DNA from: Macrostomum lignano
Lineage: Eukaryota
DNA: 64,000 nucleotides
Assembly: GCA_002269645.1 (NCBI GenBank)
Contig: NIVC01002696.1
Coordinates: 18,278 to 82,277, forward strand
Direction: 5' to 3'
The translations under genes were made by a program, and so were the position numbers. Below the pieces are notes generated by a model. That model was not told the DNA's origin and did not search any database. It saw nothing but the letters and a program-made list of their open reading frames with translations. Of the stretch, positions 10,465 to 30,400 are shown one piece after another (the first letter of the stretch is position 1; each line of letters starts with the position of its first letter).

Positions 10465-11289
10465 CTGCAGAGTGGTGTCTCAAAAACTCAAAAACTCAAA
10501 AACTCCATTTTTGGTTGACAGCGGCACGTTTTGAAGGAGAGGTGCTCAATTCCTGCTGCAGCAAGATTTTGTGAGCTAGCGGAAACTGCAAATTACTTCT
10601 TAAGCTATAGACAGCACTGAATCATTGTGCTTTTATTGAAAAAATGAAAAAACTTCGTCTCATTTAAGTGTGTAGTCACTGTAGTGTGTGATGCTCCAGC
10701 TTCTCAACTAACTATAGTTCTGAATCACACGGGTAGCTTCTTTCTGCACCCCACCCCCACTGCACGTGAGTCAGCTGTCAAAAAAGCATTGCCTTTTTTT
10801 ACCCCATCACCTCCGCCCATCATACTTCTAAATAGCTATAACAGCTTGACCGGCAAGGGTTTTGGGCCCCTTGCAAGATGAGGCCTGTTTTTCTAGACTC
10901 GAGTGCGATAGACTCGTAGCTTTAGGGCCTATAGCAGTTTTGCATTGAAGCTGAACAGAAACACAGTATTAGCTCGTAACTGGGAAGTGGAATGCTCTAT
11001 AGTTTTTTTGATATCGCAAACAATTTAAAGCTTTTTAAAAAACATTTATTTCTGAAAGTTTCTTTTCACTAACTTCGTAAACGAATATAGTAATTAATTC
11101 AATGTATTGAAACGCGCATAGACGTGAACGATTCAAAAACTGGGAGGGGGGCAGGTTCAGTGGCGGATTTATGGGGGGGGGTGGCGCACAGGGGGCACGC
11201 CCCCCCGTCGAGTTAGATTTTTTTATTTTTTTGTATGGAAAATGAACAGCATGTATGTACCAATAATTTTTGAATCGGTGTTGTCAGCA

Positions 11290-12329
11290 CTCATTTTAGC
11301 GCCGCAGGCACTCATTTTAGCGCCGCAGGCACTCATTTTAGCGCCGCAGGCACTCATTTTAGCGCCGCAGGCACTCATTTTAGCGCCGCAGGCACTCATT
11401 TTAGCGCCGCAGGCACTCATTTTGGCGCCGCAGGCACTCATTTTAGCGCCGCAGGCACTCATTTTGGCGCCGCAGGCATTCAGTTTGGCGCCGCAGGCAC
11501 TATTTTAGCGCCGACGGCACTCATTTTAGCGCCGTAGGCACTCATTTTGGCGCCGCAGGCACTATTTTAGCGCCGCAGGCACTCAATTTAGTGCCGCAGG
11601 CACTCATTTTGGCGCCGCAGGCACTCATTTTAGCGCCGCAGGCACTCATTTTAGCGCCGCAGGCACTATTTTAGCGCCACATGCACTATTTTAGCGCCGC
11701 GGGCACTCATTTTGGCGCCGCAGTCACTCATTTTAGTGCCGCAGGCACTCATTTTAGCGCCGAAGGCACTCATTTTGGCGCCGCAGTCACTCATTTTAGT
11801 GCCGCAGGCACTCATTTTAGCGCCGAAGGCACTCATTTTAGCGCCGTAGGCACTCATTTTGGCGCCGCAGGCACTATTTTAGCGCCGCAGGCACTCATTT
11901 TGGCGCCGCAGGCACTCATTTTAGCGCCGCAGGCACTCATTTTGGCGCCGCAGGCATTCAGTTTGGCGCCGCAGGCACTCATTTTAGCGCCGAAGGCACT
12001 CATTTTAGCGCCGTAGGCACTCATTTTGGCGCCGCAGTCACTATTTTAGCGCCGCAGGCACTCATTTTAGCGCCGTAGGCACTCATTTTGGCGCCGCAGG
12101 CATTCATTTTAGCGCCGCAGGCACTCATTTTAGCGCCGCAGGCACTATTTTAGCGCCACATGCACTATTTTAGCGCCGCGGGCACTCATTTTAGCGCCGC
12201 AGGCACTCATTTTAGCGCCGCAGGCACTCATTTTGGCGCCGCAGGCACTCATTTTAGCGCCGCAGGCACTCATTTTAGCGCCGAAGGCACTCATTTTGGC
12301 GCCGCAGTCACTCATTTTAGTGCCGCAGG
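11290..12329. repeat. 21-bp satellite (gcactcattttagcgccgcag), left part of the array interrupted by the Polinton
   Basis: Tandem copies; the array resumes at 30144. Confidence 0.95.
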
Positions 12330-12905
12330 AGTAGTAGTATGTTATAAAGGGTTGCGCCACACTTATTGCTCGGGCGCATTGCGCGCCAGCTCGCTGGATG
12401 ACTCAACCCTTTATAACATACTACTACTACCATGAGGTCATGGGTTCAAGTGGGGTGTGATAAATATAAAAATATATAAATATACATATATCTGTGACTG
12501 AGGGTGTTGAGGGTGAGGGCATGTGGGGGGCATTGGCCTGTGGTATATTTCTCAGAAGACAGAATTTCCGGATTTTTTATACTTTTAAAAAGGGGGGGTG
12601 CCCTCGCCCTCATGCCCTCACTCATTTTGAAAATCACTAAAAATAAGTGAAAAATGACTAAAAACAGGCGAAAATGGTCTGAAAACAGCGATTTTTTGTG
12701 ATTTTCAAAAATTTTGAAAAAGTGCAATTTTCACGATTCCAGCTCTAAAACCATGAGAAAAGTTGGATTCACGGGTCAATTTAATGCAATTTCAGGTATA
12801 TACAATATGAAAGTGTCATCCAATTCAACGATAGTAAATTATATATATATAAAATGGCCTTCAGTAAACCATTATTTCTAGGAAATGCTTTAGATATTCA
12901 GTCAG
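12330..12905 (+). repeat. Left terminal inverted repeat (576 bp) with a 99-nt terminal hairpin
   Basis: Near-identical reverse complement of 29568-30143; arms 12330-12354 and 12404-12428 are perfectly complementary. Confidence 0.95.
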
Positions 12906-15092
12906 CTATAACAAAACTACCACCCATCTTCGCCACTGGAAAATACCCAGGAGAACTTCATATTCCAGGGTATTCTTTTGCAGGTTACGTAGTGGCCTGA
13001 GTGAGGAAGTCAATGTCCTTGCTAGTCATCAAATAAGCACTTGTTAAAGTTTCTATAGTAAAAATGGAGCAAACAATTCGAGAAATTCTTCTGAAACCAA
13101 TTGATGATAAGGTTGGGCATGATCAAATTCTTCATGATCTTTTCCAAGAAGAGTTAATAATTTCACACAAGATTAAAGTTATTCAAATGAGACTAGGCAG
13201 ACTATATGAAATATTAGCAGAAAATTATTTTGGATTCGAGAAGGTAAAAAAGATAGACCTGGTTCACGTTGAGCGAAAGATTGCATTAGAGCTTAAATCT
13301 TCTGATAACACGGACAATTCATCAAGTCGTGAAAGGAATTATCAGAAACTATTAGACTATAAAAATTCTTATCCCACCTATCAGTTGTATTATGTATGCA
13401 TCAATAAAACTACAAAGGAACCTAAGAATATTTTACTAGACAATGGAATCACCCTTATAACAGGAGAATTTGCATTGAAATTTCTTTATGGTGATCAATA
13501 CAAAAACATTATAACCAACATTAAACAAGTGCTTAGTGATTGGCGACACCTTCAAATTGCGGGAACTCCGTCCGATTCTAGTACGTCAATAACAGCCTCA
13601 AGTACCACTTCAGTTGAGAAATCTTCTGAAGGAACACAGGTAATTCCTGTTCCCAATCGGACTTCGTCCGCGAACCTATGGTTCGATGGTAACAAGCTTG
13701 AGGACATGGTGGAAATCCGCAGCCAAGCTCCTAAGTCCGAACGAAGTTGACAAGGATATGGAGAAGGTTCAGAGACTTAATGGGGGTGGGGCTGAAGGAT
13801 CTGGTCAATCCTGATGAAGCCTTAAGATAAAGTCCAGCCTCTTTCGAAAGATTGAGGAACAACTGCCGGGTACAAATTTAGACAAGAGACTCAATCCAAT
13901 TACAGACCGGCCTCGGTATGACAGTCTACCAATTAACCCAATCGATTGGACTGCTTACTATCATGACAAAAACTATAGAGATGCTGAAAACACTTCTTCA
14001 AATCCAGAGGAAGCTCTAGCAAAGAAGCATATAGCTGATGAAAAAATGATAGCTGATTTAGATGCTATTCCAACCAGTGACTTGTCTGTGAAAGAGAGAC
14101 TCATTCGAAATCTAGTAAAGCGTATTATCAAGGCTAAAGTTCGGTTTGGATTAGGCATTCATACTCACAACCCCAACAATTGTATAGACTGTCTAACAAT
14201 TTATGGTAAGGGTCTTAGCTATGAAGATGCAGTAAAATTGCATAAAGAATATCGAAAGCCAAGAGTATTTAGAAAAATGATTCACTATGCAAAAGACACA
14301 ATTTGGCATGCAGATATCATTATCCTTCCTCCTGAAAGAGGTTACAAATATGCTCTCACTATCATAGATGGTTTTACACGTTACGCCTGGGCAGTTCCTT
14401 TGAAAACAAAGACGGGAGCGGAAGTTGCAGAAGCTTTCCAAAAAGTATTTAAGGAATCAGGAAGACGACCAGAGAGACTTTGTGTAGATGAAGGCAAGGA
14501 GTTTTATAATCAGCATATGTACAAGCTATATTCGTTTTCAAAAGACAACATTAGAAAGAAGGATGAAAAGGGTGAATATATAAACAAGATGTTTTCAATT
14601 TATGGCGAGTCCAAGAATGCAATGATTGAGAGGTTCAATCGTACTCTCACAAATAAACTCTGGTTTGAATTTGATCTACAGGGTAATCAGAAGTGGCTCC
14701 ACACATTGCCAGCTATTGTTGAAAAATACAACAACACAATCCATTCTGAGATTCTGATAACTCCTTCAGAAGCATCTAAACATCCTGAGCGAGTACCAAA
14801 GCCAACTTTCGAGTATTCAAATGAGAAACCAAACTTCAAAGTAGGTGACAAAGTTCATATCTATAGATATAAGGAGCACTTTGAAAAGGGTCGAAGAGGA
14901 TATTGGAAAATTTCAGAAGTGTTTAGGATAAAGAAAATAGTTTACTCAAATCCCATAACTTACATAATTGAGGATGAGAATGGAGAAGAAATCATTGGAT
15001 CATTTTACAAATCCCAGCTTCTACCAGCAAATTTTTCAACTAAAAATGAGCGCCTATCGAACAAACTGCAAACGGGCGAAAGGTCAGATTGA
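12854..15092 (+). CDS. Parvovirus-type PLA2 fused to rve (DDE) integrase; exons 12854-12985 + 13866-15092, ~452 aa after group I splicing
   Basis: Joining GCA GGT|CCG GGT restores GELHIPGYSFAGPGTNLDKRL, followed by PINPID..AYYHD..Y (PLA2 catalytic HD). The same frame continues into integrase motifs WHAD, VDEGKEF and IERFNRTL. Confidence 0.92.
12986..13865 (+). ncRNA. Group I self-splicing intron (IC1-like), 880 nt
   Basis: 5' exon ends in U12985, paired with G12995 in P1 (CAGGU/GCCUG); terminal G13865. P AAUUGCGGGAA 13555-65, Q AAUCCGCAGC 13714-23, R GUUCAGAGACUU 13767-78, S AAGAUAAAGUC 13824-34. P3 CACCUUCA/UGGGGGUG, P4 UGCGGG/UCCGCA, P7 GACUU/AAGUC, P8 GGGCU/AGCCU, P9 CCUC/GAGG, P9.0 AG/CU; large P5abc-like insert. 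Confidence 0.95.
13064..13750 (+). CDS. Intron-encoded PD-(D/E)xK endonuclease resembling the Eco47II/Sau96I restriction enzyme family (putative homing endonuclease)
   Basis: GRLYE helix, KIDL...ALELKS catalytic motif and NTDNSSS (cf. EIKNKxNTxNSS), then YYVCI and ITGEFAL. Starts in the loop closed by the stem 13034-45/13524-35. Confidence 0.75.
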   Translation: MEQTIREILLKPIDDKVGHDQILHDLFQEELIISHKIKVIQMRLGRLYEILAENYFGFEKVKKIDLVHVERKIALELKSSDNTDNSSSRERNYQKLLDYKNSYPTYQLYYVCINKTTKEPKNILLDNGITLITGEFALKFLYGDQYKNIITNIKQVLSDWRHLQIAGTPSDSSTSITASSTTSVEKSSEGTQVIPVPNRTSSANLWFDGNKLEDMVEIRSQAPKSERS

Positions 15093-15468
15093 AACGTCTG
15101 ATTCACAACTACTAGCTGATAAAGAGGGTGAAGGAATTGGTGATATGATCAGTGGTGTCACAAACTTTTTATCAAATCATGGAAGTAAAATTGTGAGTGG
15201 AGCTGATGCAATAGGTAAAACAGCTACCACAGCGAAGAACATATTCGATGCGAAGAAATCATACAGTGACATGTCTAAAGCAGGTGAGGAACTGGAATAT
15301 ATTAAAAAGAAACGTAGAGATAAAGAAGCAAAGAAAATAATGGAAGAAGAGCAACAGATAGCTTCTCAATCAAATAAGGCTATTCAAGATATTGTTAAAA
15401 AGGCTCTAGGAACAGCAGAACAGTCTCAAGTGTCTTTGAGACAAGGCAATGGTTTGAAGAAATTCTGA
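15046..15468 (+). CDS. Putative basic virion core protein with GxG motifs
   Basis: TAAAAATG start; EGEGIG and RQGNGL motifs; position in the structural module. Confidence 0.55.
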   Translation: MSAYRTNCKRAKGQIETSDSQLLADKEGEGIGDMISGVTNFLSNHGSKIVSGADAIGKTATTAKNIFDAKKSYSDMSKAGEELEYIKKKRRDKEAKKIMEEEQQIASQSNKAIQDIVKKALGTAEQSQVSLRQGNGLKKF

Positions 15469-15476
15469 CCTTAAAA

Positions 15477-15928
15477 ATGAGCGAGAAAAACACTGAAGCA
15501 AGACTCAATCGATATGTTCGAGAGGGAAAACCAAGATATGTTACTGTAAATAAGCAAAAGCAATATCTTTCTAAAGAGAAGATTCGAGAATTGCAAGAGA
15601 AACAGAAAGAACATGAAGGTGGAATAATTCCTCTATTAGGCTTGCTACCAGCAATTTTGGGTGGTATTGGAGCAGCCTCGGAGTTGGTACAATGATTGCA
15701 AAAAGTGTTAATACAGCCAACAATGCTAAGCATAATAAGACAATAGAAAGCATTGAACGGCAAAAACTAGAAGAGTTGAAAAAGGCTCAAGGGAGTGGAG
15801 TATTAGTTGATGCGGCTAAAAGAGTCGAACAAGTACCCAGCGAAGCAGTCAAGTGGCTGCTAAAGACGTTTAAAGTTGAAAAGGAGAAACAGGGTAATGG
15901 GATAATTCTTAGACCTCATGAAGCTTAG
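15477..15928 (+). CDS. Putative core/membrane-lytic (pVI-like) protein, frameshifted at 15680-15681
   Basis: EGGIIPLLGLLPAILGGIGAAS continues as GVGTMIAKSVN if one G is added, joining two ORFs into ~150 aa with GG/GxG motifs. Confidence 0.6.
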
Positions 15929-15948
15929 TTGAAATTTCTCTTATAAAA

Positions 15949-17313
15949 ATGGAGAACAAAAAGGATATACTGAGCATATATGAGGACAAAACTTTTAGCT
16001 TTTTCAAAAAGAAAGAAGACTATATTAAGATTTCTCCAACTCCAGGTAGCACTAATAATCTCAATGTTGCAGGAGGTCAAATAGTTCATGAAGTCAATTC
16101 AACAGAGTCATACATTCTCATGTCAGAGGCATTCGGTTGTATAAAATACTCAATAACACAACGAGATAACACCGACTTGAATACGAACATTACTCTAGAA
16201 CATAATTGGCCTATGAGACTTTTCTCTCAACTCATAGTTGACATTGGAGGAACAAAGAAAGTCTATAATGATCCTGGAGAGTATGACACAATCTTAAAGT
16301 CCGTAATGTACTCAAAATTAATGAATGAAGTTGGAGAAGCATACGGATGGATTCCAGACACTGGAGATGCTGGGACTGTTTCTGATATACCTCTAGCAAA
16401 CAACGCAGATGCTGAAGCTGTGAGAACTGCAGCAATCGCTATGAAAAATAGACTCAATAAGAAGGATTCGAATACTGGATACATTAGGAGGCTTGAAAAT
16501 TACAATAATGTCACTAATGCTCCAAACAGAGGTGGAACAATCAAACTATCATTAACACCCCTCATTGGGTTCCTTGATTGGCAGAAGATTAGCAAAGGAA
16601 TTAAATATAAATTCACATGGACAAGAAAGACTAACGATGCTGAAATTTTCTTTGGAGCTGCCGGGACGGAAGCTAAGTTAACTATTAATAGCTTTGAGAT
16701 TTGGATCCCTGCTATTACTTTGTCACCCAGTGCTGAAGCAGCTTTTCTAAAATCACTCAACAAGGACATTACAGTATCATTTCCAGAGAGGGTAACGGTT
16801 CCACCACAACTCATTCAAGGAAGTCCATATACATGGAACATAGCCAACATCTCCAATATGCCACTTGCAATCTTTGTAGCTTTCAAATATGACGTAAACA
16901 ACCCATCATATATAGTTAATGATCACAAGTATGTGTCTTACAAAACTGGAGCAAATTCAGTGAAAATAACCCAGCTTCAAGTCAGATTAAATCAGGTGAT
17001 GTATCCGAATGATTATGTTGAAATTGATCCAGTAGCTCAAGACATTCACAGAGCGTATGAAATGTACGAAGACATCTGCAGCCGTTTCGGTGTAACTCCT
17101 CCATTCAATAAACAAGACTTTCTAACCATCTATCCAATCTTTTGCTTTGATCTAACAGCTCAAGATGAGTTTCTGGTCAAGAGTGGAGTGAATATTCAAT
17201 TATTTATCAAGAAGTCAACAAATGTTGAGCTGACTGCTTTTGCACTAATTCTTGAACAAACAAAGAATGTAATAAAAGTTACCAGTGAATATCAAATGAC
17301 CCGCGTCGAATAA
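15949..17313 (+). CDS. Double jelly-roll major capsid protein (454 aa)
   Basis: Polinton MCP pattern: YIKISP..G..LN..G, LEHNWPMRLFSQ, PGEYDT, GYIRR, QVRLNQVMYP, YPIFCFDLT. Confidence 0.85.
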   Translation: MENKKDILSIYEDKTFSFFKKKEDYIKISPTPGSTNNLNVAGGQIVHEVNSTESYILMSEAFGCIKYSITQRDNTDLNTNITLEHNWPMRLFSQLIVDIGGTKKVYNDPGEYDTILKSVMYSKLMNEVGEAYGWIPDTGDAGTVSDIPLANNADAEAVRTAAIAMKNRLNKKDSNTGYIRRLENYNNVTNAPNRGGTIKLSLTPLIGFLDWQKISKGIKYKFTWTRKTNDAEIFFGAAGTEAKLTINSFEIWIPAITLSPSAEAAFLKSLNKDITVSFPERVTVPPQLIQGSPYTWNIANISNMPLAIFVAFKYDVNNPSYIVNDHKYVSYKTGANSVKITQLQVRLNQVMYPNDYVEIDPVAQDIHRAYEMYEDICSRFGVTPPFNKQDFLTIYPIFCFDLTAQDEFLVKSGVNIQLFIKKSTNVELTAFALILEQTKNVIKVTSEYQMTRVE

Positions 17314-17334
17314 GGTCATTTTTTCTTTTTTTAA

Positions 17335-18108
17335 ATGCCCAAAGTAAAATTTCGGCATGATCCTATTTTCCCTAATCCTCTTTTATGTTGTATTATCGGC
17401 GCTACAAATACGGGTAAAACATATTTACTATTCCATATTCTTACAAGTCCTGAAAAACTAGTTGACTTTAATGAGTTAGTTTTATATGTTCCCAGAGCAT
17501 CTCAAATGGATCCAGAGTATCAGTTTCTAAAGCATGGCTTTGAAAATGGTCTCCCACCTTCTCTTATCAACTCACTCTATCATGTCTACCAGGTGAGTGA
17601 GGATGCATCTCCTGAAGATATTAAGCATATTTGTAACGAGGCAGCCGACCTTGGTGGAGTGCAAAGCACATCAGAAAATTCAGAAGTAATAGAGAAAATT
17701 TCTGTCACTCTTTCCCATACTCCAAATGAAGAAATTTTTCATAATGGACTAAAGACATGTGTGATATTGGACGATGTTTTGGGAGAGGCTAATCAAACAT
17801 TTCAGGAAAGTCTGTTTCAGAGAGGCAGGCATGGAAACTGTTGTGGTTTTTATCTAGCTCAAAATTTTACCAAACTAGATCGCAATACTGTCAGGGAGAA
17901 TACGACATGTTACATAATCTTTAAACAAAAAGATACAAACTTAAATCACATTGCTAGAAATATAGAAACGAATTATGAACCCGCTATATTCAAGGCTAAA
18001 TGTAGAGAGGCTTGGAAAAAGAAGTATGGCTATATCTATATAAATACAAGAGCTGATGAGGATGAGCAAGATTTGTATAAGGATGTTCTAACTAAAATCC
18101 CATTGTAA
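17335..18108 (+). CDS. A32/FtsK-like genome packaging ATPase
   Basis: Walker A GATNTGKT, Walker B VILDD, RGRH, LAQ. Confidence 0.92.
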   Translation: MPKVKFRHDPIFPNPLLCCIIGATNTGKTYLLFHILTSPEKLVDFNELVLYVPRASQMDPEYQFLKHGFENGLPPSLINSLYHVYQVSEDASPEDIKHICNEAADLGGVQSTSENSEVIEKISVTLSHTPNEEIFHNGLKTCVILDDVLGEANQTFQESLFQRGRHGNCCGFYLAQNFTKLDRNTVRENTTCYIIFKQKDTNLNHIARNIETNYEPAIFKAKCREAWKKKYGYIYINTRADEDEQDLYKDVLTKIPL

Positions 18109-18110
18109 AA

Positions 18111-18842
18111 ATGACTAATGAATATATAAGAGAACTCATTAATTTAGCAAAGCAGCGAGAAATGTACAAATCCAGAAATGATGCTCAACGCTATTTGAAA
18201 ATTGGAGAAGAGAGTTTATATGCAAGAGTGGCTCCATTAGCTCAAAAACCTGTCACAGAAAAGCTCGATGAATTTATTGATGTCAATGCCAACCTTGTTG
18301 ATAAACTTCAGAATCAAAAAGTTCCAGTTCCGCAATCAAGTACACCAAAAGGCCGATTTGAACCCCTAGAAGTATTTGACAAAATAATTGAAGAAATTGG
18401 AAAGATTCCAATAACTCAAAGACCAGCGCCTAGTATACGGATTCAAAAAACTGATGCTGGATATATATTTGGATCATCTGTAATAGATGTTGAATTCCAT
18501 GAACAAGGTCGAGACATCATTGTCAATGAATTCCGAATGCCATTTTCTGAAGATCTTGAAGAGTTGTTCAAAATGCCTAAAGTAACTGAAAATGGTGAAG
18601 AGCTGAAGCAATTCAAGATGCAAACATTGCAGGATTATGTTAACCTCATTGAACATTGTAAAAATCCAGCGGCCAAATCAAGTGGGAATTATAAGCAAGC
18701 AGTAAGGATATTGAAAGATAATCCACCAGGATATCGAGTAAAACCGGGATCTGGACTCAGTGAAAGAGTGTTGACATTACTAGCCGCAAAAGCAGAGGGA
18801 CATAACAATGTTGATAAAGAGCTAGTAGAATTACTTGCTTAA
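18111..18842 (+). CDS. Conserved Polinton structural/core protein
   Basis: C-terminal GSGL...LL.AKAEGHNN..KEL motif typical of Polinton core proteins. Confidence 0.6.
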   Translation: MTNEYIRELINLAKQREMYKSRNDAQRYLKIGEESLYARVAPLAQKPVTEKLDEFIDVNANLVDKLQNQKVPVPQSSTPKGRFEPLEVFDKIIEEIGKIPITQRPAPSIRIQKTDAGYIFGSSVIDVEFHEQGRDIIVNEFRMPFSEDLEELFKMPKVTENGEELKQFKMQTLQDYVNLIEHCKNPAAKSSGNYKQAVRILKDNPPGYRVKPGSGLSERVLTLLAAKAEGHNNVDKELVELLA

Positions 18843-18844
18843 AA

Positions 18845-19637
18845 ATGGAAAAAGAAATAGAAAAAGTCAACATCCTCTTGAGTAAAAAGTTTCAACGCAC
18901 ATTTGACTTCTTTTCAATTAAAAACCCATTTCGACAAACTCTAGGCACTCCGATAAATTTGTATGAAGATCGAGAATACGAAGCTGGTATAAAAAAGTTT
19001 GCAGTCTTTGATGCTATTAACAATATTGAAGGAGGCAATAATGAGTTGCGATACTCGAGGGATAGTGGTAGAACATGGAAAAAAAATAAAGATTCAAGCG
19101 GGATCTTGGGAAGTTAAAAGTCTGTCAAGCGAGATTCAAAGATTGCTAACAGCTGCAAATGATTGGAAAGAGGGGGCTATTGTTTTCAGTGCAAGCCTAG
19201 ACACGCGTAGGGTTGAGTTACGGTTATCCACAGAGTATCAAGTTGATTTCAGGGATGCACATTCCAATAACTTTAGAAGACTGTTGGGATTCAATTCGGA
19301 AGTGTATTTGAAACCATTTGAGAGAGCTCCAAATCCAGCTCGGATAGACGGAGCTAGAAGTGCGATCATGGTTCGTTGTCTCAATATCAAAGGGGGTTTT
19401 ATCACTGATCCAGCCAATGGAGATCATTTAATTGATAAGCAAATACTTCTTTCAATTCCATCGTTCTCTGTCCCAATGGGAAGTAAAATTATTCAAGAAC
19501 CTGCAAATCCTGTGTACCTACCACTAACTACAAACATGTTGAGCACATTCGACTTTGTCATCGAAGATGAGTCTGGTGTTCTATACGACTTTGATGGCGA
19601 GGAAATATTTATAAATCTACACGTACGACAAATATGA
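18845..19637 (+). CDS. Minor capsid protein (penton), frameshifted in the A8 run 19079-19086
   Basis: PINL..REYEAG..INNI..NNELRYS.D.G.TWKK joins IKIQAGSWEV if one A is removed; C-terminal RCLNI, YLP and DFDGEEI motifs; ~263 aa. Confidence 0.85.
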
Positions 19638-19646
19638 GTGTTAAAA

Positions 19647-20077
19647 ATGAGCGAAGCTGAGACATGGAATGCATTTAAACAAAAGTTTGGGACTGACACT
19701 ACGACTAATATTGATCTGATAAATTGGGCAAAATATCTCAAGTTAAAACCATTTCGCTATGCCATGAGAGATGAAATTGTTGATTTACCACAGTATGGTT
19801 ACTTTATGACAAATATTCACACTTCGAAAGAACGGGGTATACATCATTCAGCTATATTTTCAGCTCCTGATAAGGTTTATTTTTTTGATTCCTATGCACT
19901 ACCACCCACACTGGAAATTATGGAAAAGTTTAATCACACAAAAATAGAATATGTGGAGACATGGAAGAACAAATTCAAACTTTTGATAAGAAATATTGTG
20001 GTCAAATGTCGCTGTACTTTTTACACCGAATCGATAAAGGAGATAGCTATAATGAAATTTTGCAGCAATTAAAATGA
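19647..20077 (+). CDS. Adenain-like cysteine protease, frameshifted in the A5 run 19940-19944
   Basis: GIH (His) and FFDSY (Asp); the alternative frame gives EQIQTFDKKYCG (Gln and catalytic Cys). Confidence 0.88.
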
Positions 20078-21423
20078 GTTACAAGAATACTGCCAATCAA
20101 TTTGGTTACTCGTCAAATTCAAATGATATAGCGCCTGGAATAACAATAGCGTTAGCTGATGATCGATACATCAATGAAAATGAAGGATATAAGAGAGAGG
20201 AAATAGATAATTTATTGTTAGCAAAGAGAAATGTTTCAGACTCTTATTCAAAGGAAGATAGTGACGCAATGAATATCACCATGCTACAATTAATTGACGA
20301 TGCTCATGGGCGCGTAAACAATGTCTACACAAAAACCGAAATTGACACTAAGATGTATTCTAAAACCGAAATTGACACTTTGTTAGCAGAAAGGCAAGGT
20401 ACTGTGGGGGGTACAGAGAGTTCGAAATTAGTCAATATTCTTTCATTACTGACTTCAAACGCTTCCGATCCTGACATGAAAGTGACCGCTTCTCATAACT
20501 CTTCAGCAGCATATCATGTTGCAGATTCAAACCCAGCTTCAGAATGGAGCAGTGTAGATGACTCAGACAAGTGGATACGAGTTCAATTTCTGAAAAGAGC
20601 TAGGAAAGTTGTAGAGATAAAGTTGGAAGGAGAGGTGTGGCCTGGTTGGTCTGTTAGTGTTAGTCTAAATGGAACAAACTGGACACCTGTTGAACAAAGT
20701 GCACCCATTGAACTACGAAGGGGCAATGCACATCTTAGGAAAAAAATACCCAATCCCTCATATTATTTTCATTATTCTCTTAATTTTTCTGGTTCCGTAA
20801 AGCTTACAAAAGTTGAATTACTTGAGAGACAAACAGTGGTTAATGATTTAGTGTGGCCTATAGATAGACTTCAAGCTGTACCAAAGCTATACGTAGACAA
20901 TGCACTTGAATCAGTGGAGCTGCGACTAAGGCGGGGACTAGGTTTCAAATCTTATACAGGATATATCCCCTCACTAGCAACACGTCAAAACTATAGAGAA
21001 AGGGGTTTCAATGTAGCGTCATCAGGAGCATTTGAAACGTCAGATAATTGGGGTTATATAGTATTTAATTCAGAATGGGCATCGAGGAATGAACCCAATT
21101 CTTACATTGAAGTACAACTTCCTGAATCTATTCAAATTTGGAAATTCGGATTGAAAGGAACCAAAGCAGTAGGTAGTGAAATTATAAAAAATCAACCAAA
21201 AAGTTTTATTCTGAAAGGGAGCAATAACAAGAGAGACTTTAGGAATATTTTTTCTACCGAAAATGCTGGTTTAGTTCCTGGAGTGATGAAATATTTTGAA
21301 GTAGCTTCCACCGAAAAATTCTCCGGTTATAGAGTGCATATTAATTCAGCCACTGAAGGATCAACTGTTCTTATTGTTTCAGGCTTTCAACTTTATCCGA
21401 TTTTAGACATAATTGTCACATAA
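20074..21423 (+). CDS. Putative fibre/receptor-binding protein with YTKTEID repeats and two discoidin (F5/8C)-like domains
   Basis: YSKEDSD/YTKTEID/YSKTEID shaft repeats; two SEW.S...W/Y-I-x-V-Q beta domains. Confidence 0.6.
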   Translation: MSYKNTANQFGYSSNSNDIAPGITIALADDRYINENEGYKREEIDNLLLAKRNVSDSYSKEDSDAMNITMLQLIDDAHGRVNNVYTKTEIDTKMYSKTEIDTLLAERQGTVGGTESSKLVNILSLLTSNASDPDMKVTASHNSSAAYHVADSNPASEWSSVDDSDKWIRVQFLKRARKVVEIKLEGEVWPGWSVSVSLNGTNWTPVEQSAPIELRRGNAHLRKKIPNPSYYFHYSLNFSGSVKLTKVELLERQTVVNDLVWPIDRLQAVPKLYVDNALESVELRLRRGLGFKSYTGYIPSLATRQNYRERGFNVASSGAFETSDNWGYIVFNSEWASRNEPNSYIEVQLPESIQIWKFGLKGTKAVGSEIIKNQPKSFILKGSNNKRDFRNIFSTENAGLVPGVMKYFEVASTEKFSGYRVHINSATEGSTVLIVSGFQLYPILDIIVT

Positions 21424-21514
21424 TTAGACATAATACCATAGTCACCATTAAAACACAACATAAGTACAAAAACTCCCAACGGGGTCAATAAACAAAAAAT
21501 TACTATCTTAGGAA

Positions 21515-21965
21515 GCTGGCAAGTAGGCAAACTTCACTCAGTGACTAACGCAGGAATTCGGGGTTGTATATTTTTCATCTACTTTTGCTACACACAGAAG
21601 CAATCTCGCAGAGCAATAATATGGTCGGCTATTGTCCGACCAAGATAGCAAAGCAAGTAGGCAAACTTCACTCGATGACTAACACAGGAATTCGGGGTTT
21701 TATATTTTTCATCTACTCTTGCTACACAGAAGCAAGCTCGCACCGCAACAATATGGTCGGCTATTGTTCGACCAAGATAGCAAAGCAAGTCTTTTTTTAG
21801 AGGCAAACTTCACTCGATGACTAACACAGGAATTCGGGGTTTTATATTTTTCATCTACTATTGCTACACAAAAGCAAGCTCGCACCGCAACAATATGGTC
21901 GGCTATTGTCCAACCAAAATAGCAAAGCAAGTAGGCAAACTTCACTCGATGACTAACGCAGGAAT
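21515..21965. repeat. Internal ~135-140-bp tandem repeat (three and a bit copies) in the element's intergenic region
   Basis: gcaagtaggcaaacttcactc...caggaattcgggg recurs at ~21519, 21653, 21785 and 21926. Confidence 0.9.
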
Positions 21966-22199
21966 TTGCCTCGACAAGAATTTGCCAAAATTTTGCCAGA
22001 AAAAAATATTTTTATTTTTTGTGCCACTTGGCACAGAATTGGCACCAATGAGAGGTTTCCGTTGTGCATTGTAAGTAAACCAACCAATAGGATTTAAGAC
22101 ACCGAAAAAATTGTTCTAGCAGCATTTAAAGCAGCATACAAATGGTTTCATCCAACCATCTATACATCCATCTTTTAAGCTAAATCTTATCTCTTAATC

Positions 22200-22631
22200 A
22201 TGCCAGGCCAGCCAACCTTGCGAGGTAGATTGCTTGCTATTAGAGCCGAGGAAAACAATATTAAGGGTATTTTCTATACAGAATACGCTAGGTCGTCATT
22301 TGCTCGCCTAATCCCAGATCCAACTGCGTTCGTCGATCATTATCGACAAAATCAGGAACGAATTTCTGATGATGCTCGTCTTCTTAAGTTACTTAAGAAG
22401 ATGTTGGCTAAGGAACGGACTGGGCGGCAATTACAGCGAGAAATCGCTGCTGCCGAGCAATTGAATAATGTGGCCATTCCTGATGCGCCACCAACCTATG
22501 AAGAGGCTCACGCTCAGCAGGCTCAGCAGGCGCAGGCTCACGCTCAGCAGGCTCAGCAGGCGCAGGCTCATGCTCAGCAGGATCATGAGATGGACGAACT
22601 TGTCCAACTAAACCAAGGCATTGGACAATGA
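22200..22631 (+). CDS. Hypothetical protein with PPxY motif and AHAQQAQQ repeats
   Basis: 143-aa ORF inside the element; PPTYEEA. Confidence 0.6.
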   Translation: MPGQPTLRGRLLAIRAEENNIKGIFYTEYARSSFARLIPDPTAFVDHYRQNQERISDDARLLKLLKKMLAKERTGRQLQREIAAAEQLNNVAIPDAPPTYEEAHAQQAQQAQAHAQQAQQAQAHAQQDHEMDELVQLNQGIGQ

Positions 22632-22843
22632 AGACTTGAGTTTCCACTGTATAAGTGTTTAAAGTAGTTATAACATCTCTAGAAATAAAATGAATTACTA
22701 TCATGCTAAATCTCTTTAAGCCAGGCCACAGAATGCTCCGCGGAGCCTGGCCATTTGTGTCTGAAAATATTTTCTTTTGTGTTCCCCCTTATTGTAAACT
22801 TCCACTCGAATCAGATTGTGACTGTTAAATTTTCCATAGAAAA

Positions 22844-23188
22844 ATGGAAGCTAATAACCCAAATGTTCGAAATGCTCTGCCACAAAAATATTATGATTCT
22901 ATTATAAATTTCTCTCAAATAAAAACACCCATTCGAAAGGCTCGACTAATTGCAGAAATTGATAAAGCTTACGATGAATATAAAGCAGAAATATTAAAAC
23001 ACACCGATTGTAAATGCCCCCCATATTTGTATTCATTCAGAGTATATCTTGCACATGTTGATAAATGGGCATTGATTTCGAGACAGCACATAAGGAATGA
23101 TGAATTTTTCGTCATGCTTAAGTTGAACATTTTCAAACTCCCCATAACCCTTGAGAAGTACATTGAAACTAATGAATTATATTGTTAA
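22844..23188 (+). CDS. Hypothetical protein (114 aa)
   Basis: AAAAATG start, co-oriented with the helicase; no recognised motif. Confidence 0.5.
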   Translation: MEANNPNVRNALPQKYYDSIINFSQIKTPIRKARLIAEIDKAYDEYKAEILKHTDCKCPPYLYSFRVYLAHVDKWALISRQHIRNDEFFVMLKLNIFKLPITLEKYIETNELYC

Positions 23189-23204
23189 ATTTATTTTAAA
23201 TAAA

Positions 23205-25670
23205 ATGGAAAGAAAAAATCAAAACGATTCAAGTTTCTCTCCTGTGATCGTACAGGATCCGCTTCAAAAACATGATGCCCCACCACCAAGATTGACAAAT
23301 TTAAAACAAACAAAATCGTACGATAAACTAATTAATCTCTATGGAGAACTTAATTTTAAATTCGGAAGTTGCAGTGTAACATGGAATAGTAAAACAAAGA
23401 AAAAAATACCGTCAGGAATGCCAAACAAAGCAGATAGGAATTCAACCTCCCCACCATTTCGACCAGAGGTAGACAACATGATTTGGATAGATACTAGAAA
23501 CTCAAATATAACCGTAATCGATATTGATAATGCTGACCTATGCCCTGAGTTGAATGAACTGTGTATGACTCATTGTGATTGGGTTGTTCAGACAAACAAG
23601 GGACACCACTTTTACTTTAACAAGGTAGATGGATTGAAAGTAACGATTCAACAAAGTGTGGGTTTTGATATTCCCGCCTTAGTATTTGCTCCACCAGGTT
23701 TCTATTATGTCGATGGTGAAATTAAGGAATACAAACGTATAAAGCCCGAAAGGTTAATAGACATGCCAGATGTAATTTTTAATGAGATAAATAGATTAAT
23801 TAAGCCACAGGATAAAAATGAAATCCAAGAACAAGATAAACAGGCACTAAAAAGCACCGTTCCACCACCCACTTGTGAAGGAGCTTCAAAGTTGTTAAGT
23901 ATAATACAACACAAAAACCAAGACTATGATTCTTGGTACAAGGTAGCACTTATACTCCGCGACATAGACAGTGGTGATGAAATGTACAAAGTATTCACTG
24001 ATTGGTCAAAAGTAAATTATGATAAGTTCGATTCCGAATCATGTAAAAAGGTGTGGAATAGCACCAATACCAGCTCTGCTGATGCACAGGACAGACTTAC
24101 TATCGGTACGTTGAAGAAATGGGCTAGTGAAGAAAATTATTGTAAATATAAGGAATGGAAAAGCAAATATGATTATTATGGTAGGATTGAGTATCTTGAT
24201 GATAATTTCACTGACGTTAACATAACCAACTTTGTTTATGAATATAAGAAGAATAATATAATTTACAATAGCGATGGTGTTTACTATTTTGATGATGATA
24301 AGTGGAGAGAACTAAGTAGTATAAATGACATATTTCTTAAAATATCAGACCTTGTTAGCGGTGAGTTAAACCACCGAAAGACTAGACTCGAAATTGCAAT
24401 TAAGAAGGCGGCTGATGATAAAGAAAAGTTAAAAGCACTTGAAAAGAAACTACAGAGTACAATCAAGAATATAAATTCAATACAAGGAGCCAACAAACTC
24501 AAACAGGTAACTACTTTGTTCAAAGAGAGGTTTACTAACAATGAAATTGAATTCGACATGAAATGGAATTTGCTAGGGTTTGATGATGGAGTATATGACC
24601 TCGATACAAGTGAGTTTCGCAAGCATAGATATGACGATTACGTTACTAAATCAGTGGGATATTATTACTCGGATGTACTTAGAGTGAGTGATGACGACTA
24701 TGACTTCATTGTTAATCTGCATAACCAAATTCATCCCGATCCAGAAAATAGAAAGAGTTGGGAATCCGTTATAGCCACAGCTCTAATGGGTAAGAATGTT
24801 GAAAACTTTATAATGTTTGATGGCGCTGGTGGAAATGGGAAGGGGGTTGAGGACAACCTACTTCTTAGAACTCTAGGATCTGATTATGCAGCACCACTGA
24901 GTCCTGATGTTTTGAATTTACCAATAAGAATAGACAGGCCACAACCAGCCCTAGCACAAATTAATAAAAAGAGGTTGGTTATCAGTCAAGAAGTAAGTGG
25001 TGTCTTGAACAATGCATCAATAAAATTACTAACTGGTGGTGGGGTTATCCAAGCTAGAAATTTATATTCAAGCCAGTGTAATGTCGTTTTACACGCAACC
25101 CTAATAGTCGAATGCAACAACAAGCCTGACTTTAGACAAAATATTGGAGATGCAGAAAAAAGACGAATTATAAATATTAATTACCCATGTAAATATACAA
25201 CAGATACCGACATCATTGATCATGCGAAACACATTTATAAAGCCGATTCATATCTTAAAACCGAGGAATTTAAGAATAAATATAAGTTTGCTGAGATGAA
25301 ACACCTACTAGAAATTTTCAAGCAAACAAAGGGTGAAATATATCTATCTCAAAATGTAATTCAAAACACTAATAAATTCATACAAAATTGTAATTGGTTT
25401 TCTCGCTTCTTTGAAGAGAATTATGAATTTTTAGAAACTGAGGAAAAAACATTTTTGCTTATTAGAGAAATTTACACTGCCGCAACAGAGAGTGAATACT
25501 ATAGGACTCTAGCCCAACGTGAGAAACGTGAATTCCAACAACAATACATAACAGATTTCTTCAAGAAACACAAAGACTATTTTAAGTATTATAAGGATAG
25601 ATATAGGCGTAGGATAGATGGTAAACAGCAAGAAACTAGAAATGTTCTGTTTTACTGTGTAAAAAAATAA
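23205..25670 (+). CDS. AEP/Prim-Pol primase - PriCT-2 - D5-like SF3 helicase
   Basis: TVIDID and TNKGHHFYF primase motifs; YDSWYKV...WS...KKVW...IGTLKKWA (PriCT-2); LLGFDDGVYDL (D5_N); Walker A GAGGNGKG; IKLLTGG, CNNKP. Confidence 0.88.
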   Translation: MERKNQNDSSFSPVIVQDPLQKHDAPPPRLTNLKQTKSYDKLINLYGELNFKFGSCSVTWNSKTKKKIPSGMPNKADRNSTSPPFRPEVDNMIWIDTRNSNITVIDIDNADLCPELNELCMTHCDWVVQTNKGHHFYFNKVDGLKVTIQQSVGFDIPALVFAPPGFYYVDGEIKEYKRIKPERLIDMPDVIFNEINRLIKPQDKNEIQEQDKQALKSTVPPPTCEGASKLLSIIQHKNQDYDSWYKVALILRDIDSGDEMYKVFTDWSKVNYDKFDSESCKKVWNSTNTSSADAQDRLTIGTLKKWASEENYCKYKEWKSKYDYYGRIEYLDDNFTDVNITNFVYEYKKNNIIYNSDGVYYFDDDKWRELSSINDIFLKISDLVSGELNHRKTRLEIAIKKAADDKEKLKALEKKLQSTIKNINSIQGANKLKQVTTLFKERFTNNEIEFDMKWNLLGFDDGVYDLDTSEFRKHRYDDYVTKSVGYYYSDVLRVSDDDYDFIVNLHNQIHPDPENRKSWESVIATALMGKNVENFIMFDGAGGNGKGVEDNLLLRTLGSDYAAPLSPDVLNLPIRIDRPQPALAQINKKRLVISQEVSGVLNNASIKLLTGGGVIQARNLYSSQCNVVLHATLIVECNNKPDFRQNIGDAEKRRIININYPCKYTTDTDIIDHAKHIYKADSYLKTEEFKNKYKFAEMKHLLEIFKQTKGEIYLSQNVIQNTNKFIQNCNWFSRFFEENYEFLETEEKTFLLIREIYTAATESEYYRTLAQREKREFQQQYITDFFKKHKDYFKYYKDRYRRRIDGKQQETRNVLFYCVKK

Positions 25671-25691
25671 ACGAAGATGTTATCAATGAGA

Positions 25692-28600
25692 TTACATTGG
25701 CTGATGAGGAATAGATCTGATAGGATCCAAATAATATCTTTTATCATCTAACGGACTCATTGTTTGTTTCATAATCTCACGAATATATATTTTATTTTTT
25801 TCAGATACAGTCATACTTACTCTACCTCTTTGAATATCTTTGTAATCTGTCAATAGTATGTTTTTAAAAGTTTCAAACTTTATATTTGTACTGCTTTTAT
25901 CAACCCCCTTGATCGTAACACACTCTCCTGAAACTGTAGTGAAAGCATACTCCTTTGACCGCAAGAATACAGCTTCGGAAATTATTGAACCATTCATTTC
26001 ATCTTTCAACTTTCCAATTACTTTCTTATTCTTCTCGGAGTATAGTGGATGCTCTCTTGGATAATCCGATGTGTCTAAGTGTTCTTTAACTTTTCCAAGA
26101 TCCTCATAAACATCCTGAGTAATCACTGAGAATATTAGCGAATCACAATCAGAATAGTGCAATTGACAGCTTTTCCAATTCTTCTCAATAAAATTGTAAT
26201 AGCAATCGTACATTAGCATTTTTGCATAATCCAGAATGGCCATCCCTAAATAAATTGGCTTGTCACACGCAATTGTCTTTTTGTACATTTGGATACCAAC
26301 TGCATCCTCACTAAACATAATGAAATCTTTGAAATTTGGTTTAGAAAAATAACGCCTTGCAGTTTTTTCTTCAGCTACAAGATGAAAGTTCGACCTATTC
26401 TTTACATTTTCGATTGTTTTACCGTAGAATGAGTTGTTTAGTAGTTTCCACAGGTCTTTCTCAAATTTAGTTTTTGCTTCTATTCTCCGCCTGGTATTAA
26501 ATTCGATGTATTTACTCAACCAGTTTGATTCTTTGAATGAAATAATTCTATGAACTCTCATAACTCGCATGCCCATCTTCTCATAAAACTCAAGTAGTCT
26601 GTGATGTAAAACATATTTCTCCTTGTTGTAAAATGTCAACATCAACTTGGATTGAACAAACTTTTTCTTTTCGACTTCGAGGTATTGCTTCTGTATGTCA
26701 GATAAATCCTCAAATCTAGTTGTTCGTTTCTCAGGAGCCAGTGGATATTTACTTGTAGCTTTCTTACATTCCTCTGTATATTGAAGGTCAACTTCAAGAA
26801 AACAACCCCTGCCATTAGGAATATTCTTGTGATACTCTAGATCATTTTCAAACTTGAAATCTCCCACAGGTAGATTTTTCATCATTGCTTCACCATATAA
26901 ATTATTCTTGTCCAAGTATAGCATGTACGACGATTCAGAATTGCTGTCATAACTTTCTAAATACTTGTTATTCATTTTTTTATATCGATCTCCAAGAACT
27001 CCAGAGAAACCGCCGCGAATACCACTTTCTACCATGGATATCATTTCTTTATCACCAAGTAATTCCAATTCCACATTAGTATATTTCAACCCACATGCCC
27101 ACGATAATCCAGAAAGGGAAAAGCAATACGCAGGATCTATCTTGAAATATTTCAAAAATGTTGATCGAAACTTCTCAAAAGCATTGACAAATGAGTAAAT
27201 CTTTCTAATTACTGCTGTTGTATCACTGGGTGGCAAATATTTTATTTCTTCTTCAGAGAGTGTAAATGGTGGTTCCAAAAACCTAGATCCATCTAAAAAC
27301 ACAACACCACTGGTATAATTCCCCACTTGATTGCAACATGGTCTTCAGATGTTTTAGAAATGAAATCCAATTTATACGCTGTATTCTTTATTCGTGTTAA
27401 TGGAACTATCAAATAGTTTAGATCTTTTCCAGATTCATTCAGAAGAAACAACGGTACTGTTTGATTCGCCTTGCCCTCCTTGGTATTACATGATTGACAT
27501 GCTGCGCCGCGATATTTACCATTGTAGTGATTATGCTCTCGAATTTTTTTACTATCTACAAATGGCCTTGAGCAGAGAAAACATTGTTCTGCCGCTTTGT
27601 AATCAGTCTCTTCGACATCACTTAAACTTGGATGTTTATATCTATCCATTTCATTTTTTATATGCTCAAACTTTTTTATTACGGTTTCAACGAATGATTC
27701 CACTGTAGTATTTGAAATAATATTTGATTTTATAATGTCCTCATAGTCGGAACTAGTAAAAAGTGTCCATTGTGATAGCTCTAGTGATTTATCATCCATC
27801 GTTACATAATCTAATATTGCATGAAACACAAATGGTTTTCTTACACTCATGTGGTAGTTTTTAAACTTTAATATCCTCTTATCAATCTTTGGAACTTCAA
27901 TTGACACTTTGAAGTCATTACAGATTGCTTTATGATTATCCAGTGCATCCTGGGAGTATTTGACTTGAAGACACTTTCGACAAAGAAAAACCCTGTTGTA
28001 ATTTTGGGACGTGAGGAATAAACACAAGTCTGTTATTAAGCAATAATGATTTTCAACAAGTAGTAAATCAATAACATTGGGGTTGTCGTAATCTTCTGTC
28101 AGACGAATAGAATATATTGACTCTTTAGTATTTATATCCCTCAATCCAAACACATTTATATGAAGACTGTTCAACTTTTCAATCTCAGAGATATCTCGAA
28201 TGTCCACTGGAAATTTAACGTCTCCTAAGTTTATTTCATTTATATACTGTGTATACTTACCAACTCTATATCTATGTTCCTTCACAGGATGGAGCTTTGC
28301 TAAAATAGACCAGAGAAAGCACCTATTGTCTGTAGTGTTCTTAACATTTACTAATGCGTTTGATTTAATTCGAATTTGAATATAAGTTCCTCCTTTCAAC
28401 TGATTAATGCCAACAACTTTCAACACAATCTTTACTAACTTAACAAAATAATATCCTGATCCCCTTTCATTAAAGCTATCCTTCCATCCATCGAATTCAT
28501 CCAGAATATCCTGAATTGTACTTTCTATACTAGTTTCCACTTGGAGAAGATTTAACAAAGTTCGATACTTTGAATGATATTGGAACTCAATCCAACTGTC

Positions 28601-28759
28601 GGTAGTTCCTTTATAAAATTCTGCGACAAAGGAAATTCTGTATTTTATTGAATCTCTAGCCATCAAATATTCGGAAAGAATTGGGGAGATTAAACCGCGA
28701 ATTTCTTCAACGGAGTCGAGATCAAATTCATAAGAGGCCGCTGGTATTTTCCTTTCCAT
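25692..28759 (-). CDS. Protein-primed family B DNA polymerase, frameshifted at 27321-27324
   Basis: N-terminal GSGY...NVKN..DNRCFLW region, EndoVII-like C..C...HNH..G.YRG.AC..CN, motif A YLDKNNLYG, B KLLNNSFYG, C YSDCDS, KxY LRSKEY; one added G fuses the two ORFs into ~1022 aa. Confidence 0.92.
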
Positions 28760-28784
28760 TTTTAAGAAAAAAAATTAAACAGAC

Positions 28785-29525: not shown

Positions 29526-29567
29526 TTTTATATGGCGATTATGCCTAATTGTCAATTATGTCTATAC

Positions 29568-30143: not shown

Positions 30144-30400
30144 CGCAGGCACTCATTTTAGCGCCGAAGGCACTCATTTTAGCGCCGTAGGCACTCATTT
30201 TGGCGCCGCAGGCACTATTTTAGCGCCGCAGGCACTCATTTTGGCGCCGCAGGCATTCAGTTTGGCGCCGCAGGCACTATTTTAGCGCCACAGGCACTAT
30301 TTTGGCGCCTCAGGCACTCATTTTGGCGCAGCAGGCACTCATTTTGGCGCCGCAGGCACTCATTTTGGCGCCGCAGGCCCATTTTAGCGCCAGAGGCGCT
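30144..30400. repeat. 21-bp satellite, right part of the interrupted array
   Basis: Same unit as 11290-12329, resuming at the TSD. Confidence 0.93.

Follow-up and report, generated by a model that had tools for sequence, protein, structure and literature searches.

A group I intron with a candidate Eco47II-type nuclease gene in a Polinton of Macrostomum lignano

The DNA analyzed here is a 64,000-nt stretch of the Macrostomum lignano assembly GCA_002269645.1 (contig NIVC01002696.1, forward strand, 18,278 to 82,277), referred to as the window; all positions follow the numbering of the window. It contains a Polinton element whose PLA2-integrase gene is interrupted by an 880-nt insert (12986 to 13865, + strand), almost certainly a genuine group I intron residing in a nuclear animal Polinton. 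An open reading frame (ORF) for an Eco47II-family nuclease fills most of the intron; the enzyme is predicted to read GGNCC, a word absent from the element and split by the intron. Relatives were collected from the 764-Mb assembly; Polintons of the window type are termed family A, and those of a second Polinton family in the same genome family B. Genome-wide counts of introns and copies are lower bounds, because the Rfam gathering filter missed two family B introns; five other family B introns scored 53-65 bits against RF00028 in E-value mode.

The intron was assigned by an Rfam scan, by alignment of its core and by its boundaries. The scan returned a single match in the whole 64-kb window, to RF00028 (13473 to 13856; 88.9 bits, E 2.2e-21, cut-off 50), which is the outcome that a first-pass annotation of the window, made from its letters, had named as a check on its proposal of a self-splicing intron. 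All core elements listed in that annotation were located on the + strand: P1 (12981 to 12999) folds with U12985.G12995 at the 5' splice site as had been claimed, with equal stability in only 3 of 200 shuffles, and among copies its loop varies and its stem is kept. It is followed by the P2 hairpin and the 5' strand of P2.1 (13000 to 13028; partner strand 13537-13543). Rfam and covariation place the 8-bp P3 (13547-13554/13781-13788; overall 13547 to 13788) around the 6-bp P4 (13557-13562/13717-13722), P5abc (about 13596-13703) and P6/P6a (13723-13767). P7 and P8 cover 13774 to 13834 (P7 GACUU 13774-13778 with AAGUC 13830-13834; P8 13789-13822), and P9.0, a short P9 hairpin and the terminal G13865 cover 13836 to 13865, as placed by the boundaries and by covariation. 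The proposed IC1 assignment stood in part: P2, P2.1 and P5abc are present, together with motifs located by hand that we take to be the L5b GNRA loop and an 11-nt-receptor-like element, and the P9.1/P9.2 extensions are absent from the intron. Since only a short P9 is found, we use the label IC1-like.

To what extent the core is maintained as a structure can be read from 15 aligned cores. In these, 96.3% of the cells pair and 14 of 51 pairs have changed on both sides; none of 500 shuffles reached the observed level, and slid alignments gave 31-48%. Compensatory changes were found in P3, P4, P5a, P5c, P6, P7 and P9 (P8 was left out of the count), including three of the five P7 pairs in family B, and the G-binding pair of P7, G13774-C13834, is invariant in all 15. 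The 15 rows stem from approximately three lineages, so that the covariation reflects few independent events. As a side observation, hairpin-like insertions of about 15-30 nt are gained and lost in the ribozyme loops (13576-13590 and 13656-13685; loci L015, L017, L023 and L061), and short words resembling them occur near family B gene starts.

The interrupted gene consists of exon 1 (12854 to 12985, + strand; 132 nt and 44 codons from the ATG at 12854, phase 0, ending in F-A-G, as delimited by intron-free alleles) and exon 2 (13866 to 15092, + strand), which by Pfam holds the remainder of the PLA2-like domain, starting with P-G-T, and an rve integrase. Excision would thus restore the frame, as the first-pass annotation had stated. 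It had also suggested looking for intronless copies, and these exist: among 30 loci found with exon 2 as the query, 10 have no insert and are joined at the predicted boundaries, and 20 have one (864-894 nt in 19, 492 nt in the other). A natural intron-free copy matches PF08398 with an E value of 1.3e-8, compared to 0.003 for exon 2 alone. In the 30 loci found with the intron as the query, the 5' U boundary is kept in 29, the 3' G boundary in 28, and both in 27. The ratio of nonsynonymous to synonymous substitution rates (dN/dS) of the integrase in intron-bearing copies is about 0.1. Judging by core, boundaries and frame, the ribozyme very probably excises itself from the transcript.

The exon-intron-exon arrangement occurs in 25 full-length copies of 83-100% identity on separate contigs, counting that of the window (of 292 candidates, 40 were scored and gave 43 matches); 13 copies are 99-100% identical, and all 28 scored genome candidates exceed the RF00028 cut-off. 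A single misassembled contaminant, raised at first pass as a way in which the proposal could fail, is contradicted by these numbers. Wnt genes are specific to metazoans; a Wnt search matched the assembly 86 times and 14 control genomes not once. Contig C67 contains a family A intron copy together with a Wnt exon, and on contig C952 a family B intron lies about 23 kb from Wnt exons; no animal marker gene was seen on the window's own contig. Intron copies lie inside contigs of several hundred kb, and each of 20 listed sequencing runs from 7 studies, under one organism label, contains half or more of the stretch. Because Wnt genes share contigs with intron-bearing copies, we take the host to be an animal and the copies to be chromosomal, which supports the earlier inference that a Polinton-like virus has carried the ribozyme into a metazoan nuclear genome.

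The nuclease gene (13064 to 13750, + strand, 228 codons), which is absent from the earlier account, sits in the loop of P2.1. Its product is classed as an Eco47II-family PD-(D/E)xK nuclease by a match to PF09553 (RE_Eco47II; 30.1 bits vs a Pfam cut-off of 25.9, E 4.6e-7); the corresponding nucleases of family B and of a metagenomic contig, L074, score slightly below the cut-off. The nuclease fold takes up approximately residues 1-160 and the tail is a translation of the ribozyme core. All 15 aligned homologues keep residues E49, D65, E76 and K78. The structure model (predicted local distance difference test score 91.7) best matches EcoO109I (Z 9.7, root-mean-square deviation 3.8, 160 residues aligned; Foldseek E 2e-4), the sole chain with Z of at least 8 among 48,161, and the next restriction enzyme in Foldseek is AvaII (E 9e-4); both of these enzymes read GG-N-CC-type sites. 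An hhalign comparison with an annotated plasmid member of the Eco47II family gave a probability of 90.7%. The nuclease had no match to homing-endonuclease families in Pfam and none in the fold-match lists, no sequence match among plasmids, no NCBIfam or PHROGs family and no clear relative in a BFVD fold search. No methylase, the expected partner in a restriction-modification system, was found among the 19 window ORFs scanned with Pfam.

Compared with four diverged family A copies, the nuclease has a dN/dS of 0.26-0.28; with family B and L074 the value is 0.15-0.19, by which the gene is evidently under purifying selection; counted by ORF length, at least 211 residues are kept in 15 of the 29 copies with the 5' boundary. 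Its start context is like that of most element genes and of the free-standing family B gene, which suggests that the nuclease uses its own viral-type start. Eco47II is tied to GGNCC in the portion of the literature available here (PMC10305163). Fold, family and the depletion described below make it likely that the nuclease cuts GGNCC, and they point to a predicted 5-bp recognition site, not a long site of the homing type.

The 17,814-bp element contains no GGNCC, compared to 12.9 expected. It is the sole word below half of its expectation among 256 gapped 5-mers, and no 5-mers are more depleted than its four variants. When protein sequence and codon use were held fixed, the count was 0 vs 7.3 for family A (P ~7e-4) and 0 vs 3.4 for one copy of family B (P ~0.03). 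Four family B element stretches of 10,000, 3,770, 8,799 and 3,490 bp (26 kb) are likewise free of GGNCC, with 5.1, 1.5, 3.9 and 2.1 expected (sum 12.6); in the host flanks of family B the counts come close to expectation (8 vs 8.9 and 18 vs 20.5), and the 33.9-kb right host flank in the window has 34 vs 27.8. Loss of CpG was rejected as the cause, as GGNCC contains no CpG and the 4-mer GGCC occurs 20 times. The comparison covered families A and B; a third, unrelated Polinton family in the genome was seen by a capsid search (432-aa frames, for example on contigs C2541 and C1113), and Pox_A32 had no match in the genome.

Codons for Gly-Pro read GGN-CCN and always spell GGNCC. The intron sits between the Gly and the Pro of the PLA2 loop and divides this word. 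In each of the 10 intron-free family A alleles GGNCC occurs exactly once, at the junction (spans of 2-3 kb, in one case over 9.4 kb), and the 3 intron-free family B alleles also have it there. None of the 15 copies with a full-length nuclease has GGNCC in the span examined; the word is present in the aligned span of 5 of the 30 intron-bearing loci, all of them with a shortened nuclease ORF. For the predicted site, the arrangement is that of a homing system, with the gene in or beside the intron, the target split by the intron and held intact by the intron-free allele. Exon-2 haplotypes are shared by intron-bearing and intron-free alleles, and the final exon-1 bases vary with intron status, a pattern that would fit short co-conversion and would also fit ordinary recombination.

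Family B, with an integrase 55-58% identical to that of family A, presents intron and nuclease apart. Three of its 12 stretches are intron-free, seven have an ORF-less sister intron of approximately 300-330 nt, in which a short hairpin replaces the nuclease-bearing P2.1 region of family A, and two have a different intron, presumably of the IE type. The terminal base of the ORF-less introns is A in six and G in one; those ending in A (L062:1663-1996, L063, L161-L163 and L165) keep P9.0, and L164 ends in G. The IE-like intron (L159, G000:C2097:55240-56700, minus strand; L160, G000:C87:152200-153720) follows the same Gly codon, had no Rfam match, and shows by eye the pairings P1, P3, P4 and P7 (GACUG/CAGUC), with an ambiguous 3' end. 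Directly upstream of the PLA2-integrase, the same slot holds an Eco47II-like nuclease in three stretches, an HNH/EndoVII-like gene in eight and nothing recognized in one. The free-standing nuclease is about 67% identical to the intronic one, and the nucleases of the two families are sisters (95/91). All three carriers of the nuclease have an intron, and none of the three intron-free stretches has the nuclease. The gene in the eight other stretches encodes a zinc finger and an HNH/EndoVII-like domain (L063:670-1278, L156-L161 and L164; PHROGs endonuclease VII, E 3.6e-8) and is possibly a competing homing gene.

Outside this genome, the independent contig L074 has the same gene with the same intron (80.6 bits) at the same site, F-T-G|P-G, and an intronic nuclease of 55% identity. 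A tail translated from the ribozyme core ends 11 of 165 homologous proteins, and two integrase homologues start with a read-through of the 3' end of the intron. Around nuclease relatives of about 30% identity, a methylase-motif ORF is adjacent in 19 of 20 examined loci with long flanks (90 loci in total), two of these being confirmed as PF00145, and in all three cases inspected the best plasmid matches of the neighboring methylase adjoin an annotated Eco47II-family enzyme. The pair of Eco47II-like nuclease and C5 methylase is widespread in viral and metagenomic contigs (L064-L153), mostly convergent; in P0036 the two are fused, and CCNGG is strongly depleted in many of these loci. In a tree of 45 nucleases, the intron and Polinton nucleases, the viral restriction-modification enzymes and three bacterial enzymes each fall on one side of a supported branch (16 unlabelled rows uncounted). 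The tree is midpoint-rooted, so the direction of descent is inferred.

An 18-nt motif of the ribozyme core was found in at least 122 viral-contig stretches, and the related introns inspected lie within nucleocytovirus genes for capsid protein, VLTF3 and Hsp70 (L176; L195/L196; L231/L180; L175/L177/L226, in Hsp70, VLTF3 and major capsid genes). None of 80 related viral ribozyme loci encodes this nuclease, a PLA2-integrase or a Polinton capsid; the two nearest tree rows inspected have GIY-YIG-like ORFs nearby, by weak matches. Among viral cores the introns of families A and B form one clade (100/99), and a single clade for all Polinton introns, L074 included, obtained p-AU 0.33 in the approximately unbiased test (40 distinct viral cores of the 80 loci). 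The core had no phage match, and no Polinton relative in IMG/VR was confirmed via the nuclease, the ATPase alignment or the PLA2-integrase alignment. A first ribozyme pattern was discarded: it gave five matches, and the two that were read, L166 and L167, were chance matches. The flanks of the L195/L196 intron resemble tRNA halves by eye, and ARAGORN called only a separate tRNA-Leu nearby.

The explanation that we favor, moderately probable as a complete chain including homing, is that this group I intron is mobile and that the animal Polinton housing it is being copied actively. The ribozyme would splice out and allow the PLA2-integrase protein to be made, and the nuclease, translated from its own viral-type start, would cut GGNCC. 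With no recognizable methylase, the element would protect itself through the loss of every GGNCC. The site in the PLA2 loop could not be lost, because its Gly-Pro codons always read GGN-CCN; the intron would cover this one obligatory site by splitting it exactly. In a shared cell, an intron-free Polinton genome would be cut once, at the insertion point, and would then perish or undergo repair with the intron-bearing genome as template, so that a 5-bp restriction site would act as a unique homing site. The ribozyme may have come from nucleocytovirus introns and the nuclease from viral restriction-modification pairs, the latter standing beside an ORF-less intron (the family B state) before it moved into the intron (the family A state). 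A broader statement seems to us evenly balanced: that animal Polintons run restriction without modification, with the methylase dropped, the site erased and introns shielding the essential Gly-Pro, as a homing and exclusion device, and that functional ribozymes entered animal chromosomes, apparently more than once. The basis for repeated entry is the presence of IC1-like introns, ending in G or A, and of the IE-like intron at one position.

Several observations weigh against this explanation. Against closer copies the dN/dS of the nuclease ranges over 0.14-1.13, with few changes, and is near 1 for L015 and L017. A cutter of 5 bp would be predicted to shred the host DNA, as the 34 sites in the right flank illustrate; given a host rich in GGNCC, expression of the nuclease would have to be confined to a productive phase or a compartment, for which the chromatin-degrading restriction enzymes of chloroviruses offer a precedent (PMC7019647). 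A spliced junction with intron-type flanks was absent from the contigs of four runs (X1, X4, X10 and X17) whose RNA status is uncertain; the sole exon-to-exon joint in them has the letters of the intron-free DNA allele and is present also in X17, which is not flagged as RNA. None of the 24 runs listed with the stretch is recorded as RNA, so that they have no bearing on expression. The satellite-rich left host flank is itself low in GGNCC (6 vs 12.9 expected). Gly-Pro is scarce in 120 relatives of the Polinton polymerase (0.38 of expectation), which makes a zero count of Gly-Pro weak by itself, and its avoidance was dropped as a stand-alone proof. Loci of distant nuclease relatives are depleted in CCNGG (0.40 of expectation) more than in GGNCC (0.85), so that family membership does not fix specificity, and viral loci with related ribozymes and no nuclease are mildly GGNCC-poor (0.74). 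Family B copies with the HNH/EndoVII-like gene in place of the nuclease are GGNCC-free too; the purge may therefore be older than the nuclease or have arisen for a different reason.

An additional scenario, unlikely in our judgment yet the best placed of the alternatives, is that the nuclease came first as a weapon against host chromatin, a helper virus or rival Polintons, that site loss stands in for methylation, and that the intron is mainly an antidote, shielding the unavoidable Gly-Pro site and spread by selection and ordinary recombination, not by break repair. It overlaps the homing explanation and differs from it mainly in the driver of spread. The purge extends to nuclease-free copies, three intron states (ORF-less and IE-like among them) occur at one family B position, and in family B intron and nuclease go together (carriers with an intron 3/3, intron-free stretches with the nuclease 0/3); moreover, chlorovirus restriction enzymes are packaged and, in the text available, are thought to degrade host chromatin (PMC7019647). 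The location of the gene inside the intron in family A and L074, as in homing genes, and the shuffling of flank haplotypes across intron status speak for homing instead.

Improbable, in our view, is a PD-(D/E)xK homing enzyme with a long site of 15-25 bp, similar to I-Ssp6803I, combined with a purge of GGNCC by an outside enzyme such as the restriction enzyme of a helper virus. With such an enzyme the host genome would be spared, long-site homing enzymes of the PD-(D/E)xK fold do exist (PMC3424549, in the part available), and GGNCC-type restriction-modification pairs are plausible in co-infecting large viruses. Yet the domain has only about 160 residues and no extra DNA-binding domain, the junction flanks, apart from their Gly-Pro core, vary from one intron-free allele to another, and the specificity of the family would have to coincide by chance with the purged word.

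We give very little credence to an unspliced relic, that is, an intron that disables the gene in copies mobilized in trans by intron-free ones; the broken polymerase region of the window copy, the family B introns ending in A rather than G (6 of 7) and the lack of spliced RNA in contigs of the four runs, of uncertain RNA status, would agree with it, and the compensatory changes in seven helices, the boundaries kept in 27 of 30 loci, the integrase dN/dS of about 0.1 and the 13 copies at 99-100% identity would not. Co-assembly of elements from a protist or algal symbiont or contaminant is scarcely credible: the closest ribozymes are in nucleocytovirus contigs, protist Polinton-like viruses are known to have introns and no animal marker gene was seen on the window contig, but against these stand the Wnt exons on C67 and C952, contigs of several hundred kb, the target-site duplication in a host satellite and the 20 runs of 7 studies under one organism label.

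The element extends from 12330 to 30143 and ends in AGTAGT. Its terminal inverted repeats (left, 12330 to 12910, + strand, starting AGTAGTAG; right, 29563 to 30143, - strand) differ by 7 mismatches in 582 nt. The flanking 6-bp target-site duplication, CGCAGG, occupies 12324 to 12329 (+ strand), within a 21-bp satellite, and 30144 to 30149 (+ strand). The + strand encodes a major capsid protein with a double jelly roll (15949 to 17313, PF21738), an A32-like packaging ATPase (17335 to 18108, PF04665) and, by Pfam, a primase/D5-type helicase (23172 to 25670). The protein-primed DNA polymerase B region is on the - strand (25692 to 28759) and consists of two ORFs (27293-28759 and 25692-27044), the gene being broken in this copy; the polymerase has named relatives in a mussel, a bryozoan, a spider and a leafhopper. 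The following hallmarks of Polinton/Maverick elements are present: long terminal inverted repeats with AGT ends, a 6-bp target-site duplication, a length within 15-20 kb, polymerase, rve integrase, capsid and ATPase. Candidate ORFs for an adenovirus-like protease and a minor capsid protein, further hallmarks of these elements (19647-20072 and 18845-19637), had no Pfam or PHROGs match, and the PLA2 part had no PDB sequence match.

Some further features of the window and of its relatives were recorded. A 142-bp tandem repeat lies in a non-coding part of the Polinton (21659-21932), and a segment similar to the tandem unit at 21508-21932 lies at 31771-31835. The satellite that hosts the insertion recurs at 11287-12329, 30144-30405 and 60573-60798, and other tandem arrays are dense in the window. 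An ORF at 33771-40106 (+ strand) runs for 2111 uninterrupted codons, with a GC content of 48%, three internal repeats of about 270 residues and a weak Pfam match only; near it, 33235-33343 resembles the Polinton terminal inverted repeat (78%). In L061 (G000:C2167), an intron-free family A copy, the structural half is about 98% alike and the polymerase module is different (47% identical); the replication module is swapped in some intron-free family A copies, with polymerase matches on contigs C25, C176, C2071, C3459 and C4832. Three relatives of the Polinton polymerase (P0206, P0210 and P0215) have intein/LAGLIDADG domains (PF14890, PF14528).

If the homing explanation is correct, a natural group I intron resides in a protein-coding gene of animal chromosomes, and splicing of such an intron from mRNA in animal cells becomes testable. 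To the kinds of homing nuclease already known a seventh would be added, one of type II restriction origin, and a single genome would display both stages of collaborative homing. A new logic of self and non-self would be involved, site erasure and intron shielding replacing methylation, and there would be evidence that these Polintons encounter one another, and probably also large DNA viruses, in the form of free genomes. As a compact predicted GGNCC cutter of about 160 residues, the nuclease would be easy to assay.

As for what is known, animal group I introns are described as mitochondrial and the nuclear ones as residing in ribosomal DNA of fungi, plants and algae, in the sections available (PMC3984707, PMC5633667). 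In full-text literature, from which subscription journals are mostly absent, we found no group I intron of animal nuclear DNA or of an animal Polinton, and no Eco47II-type intron nuclease. What is new about this mobile group I intron, in our view, is the compartment of the host in which it lives and the family of its nuclease; its targeting logic is possibly new as well. The closest precedent is that of protist Polinton-like viruses, where RF00028 introns occur in integrated elements and are reported as confined to a few protist groups (PMC12220804, as far as its available text goes), likewise in nuclear genomes. The Rhodomonas examples described there are 309-376 bp long, lie upstream of the capsid gene and have no annotated endonuclease; the present intron differs in its animal host, its location in a PLA2-integrase gene and its encoded nuclease. 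As group I introns in protist Polinton-like viruses are already published, the new part is the animal host together with the nuclease.

Introns of chloroviruses and other nucleocytoviruses are similar in being group I ribozymes in protein genes of eukaryotic DNA viruses, that of PBCV-1 being called group IB in the excerpted source (PMC7019647). Mitochondrial introns of hexacorals, sponges and placozoans are also animal group I introns, some with homing endonucleases; as far as the available text goes, these are LAGLIDADG enzymes (PMC5633667), unlike the restriction-derived nuclease of the present nuclear, viral intron. Adintoviruses and other animal Polintons share the protein-primed polymerase, rve integrase, capsid, ATPase and a parvovirus-type PLA2 domain; in the passages available, that domain occurs with pX and a group I intron is not mentioned (PMC8502044), unlike here, where PLA2 is fused to the integrase.

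With respect to the nuclease, I-Ssp6803I and the EDxHD enzyme I-Bth0305I are restriction-fold nucleases in group I introns as well; in the sections available (PMC3424549, PMC3984707) these have long sites and belong to bacteria and phages, the Eco47II type being placed among the type II restriction families, and the present nuclease is of the PF09553 type with a predicted 5-bp site. It shares Pfam family, catalytic motif and fold with type II restriction-modification systems of the Eco47II family and differs from them in lacking a methylase among the 19 scanned ORFs, protection apparently being achieved by site loss. Finally, the family B arrangement is similar to collaborative homing in phages, where a free-standing nuclease beside an ORF-less intron has the same target and, in the text available, is proposed as the precursor of a composite intron (PMC3984707); unlike in phages, both states are found here in one eukaryotic genome, free-standing in family B and intronic in family A.

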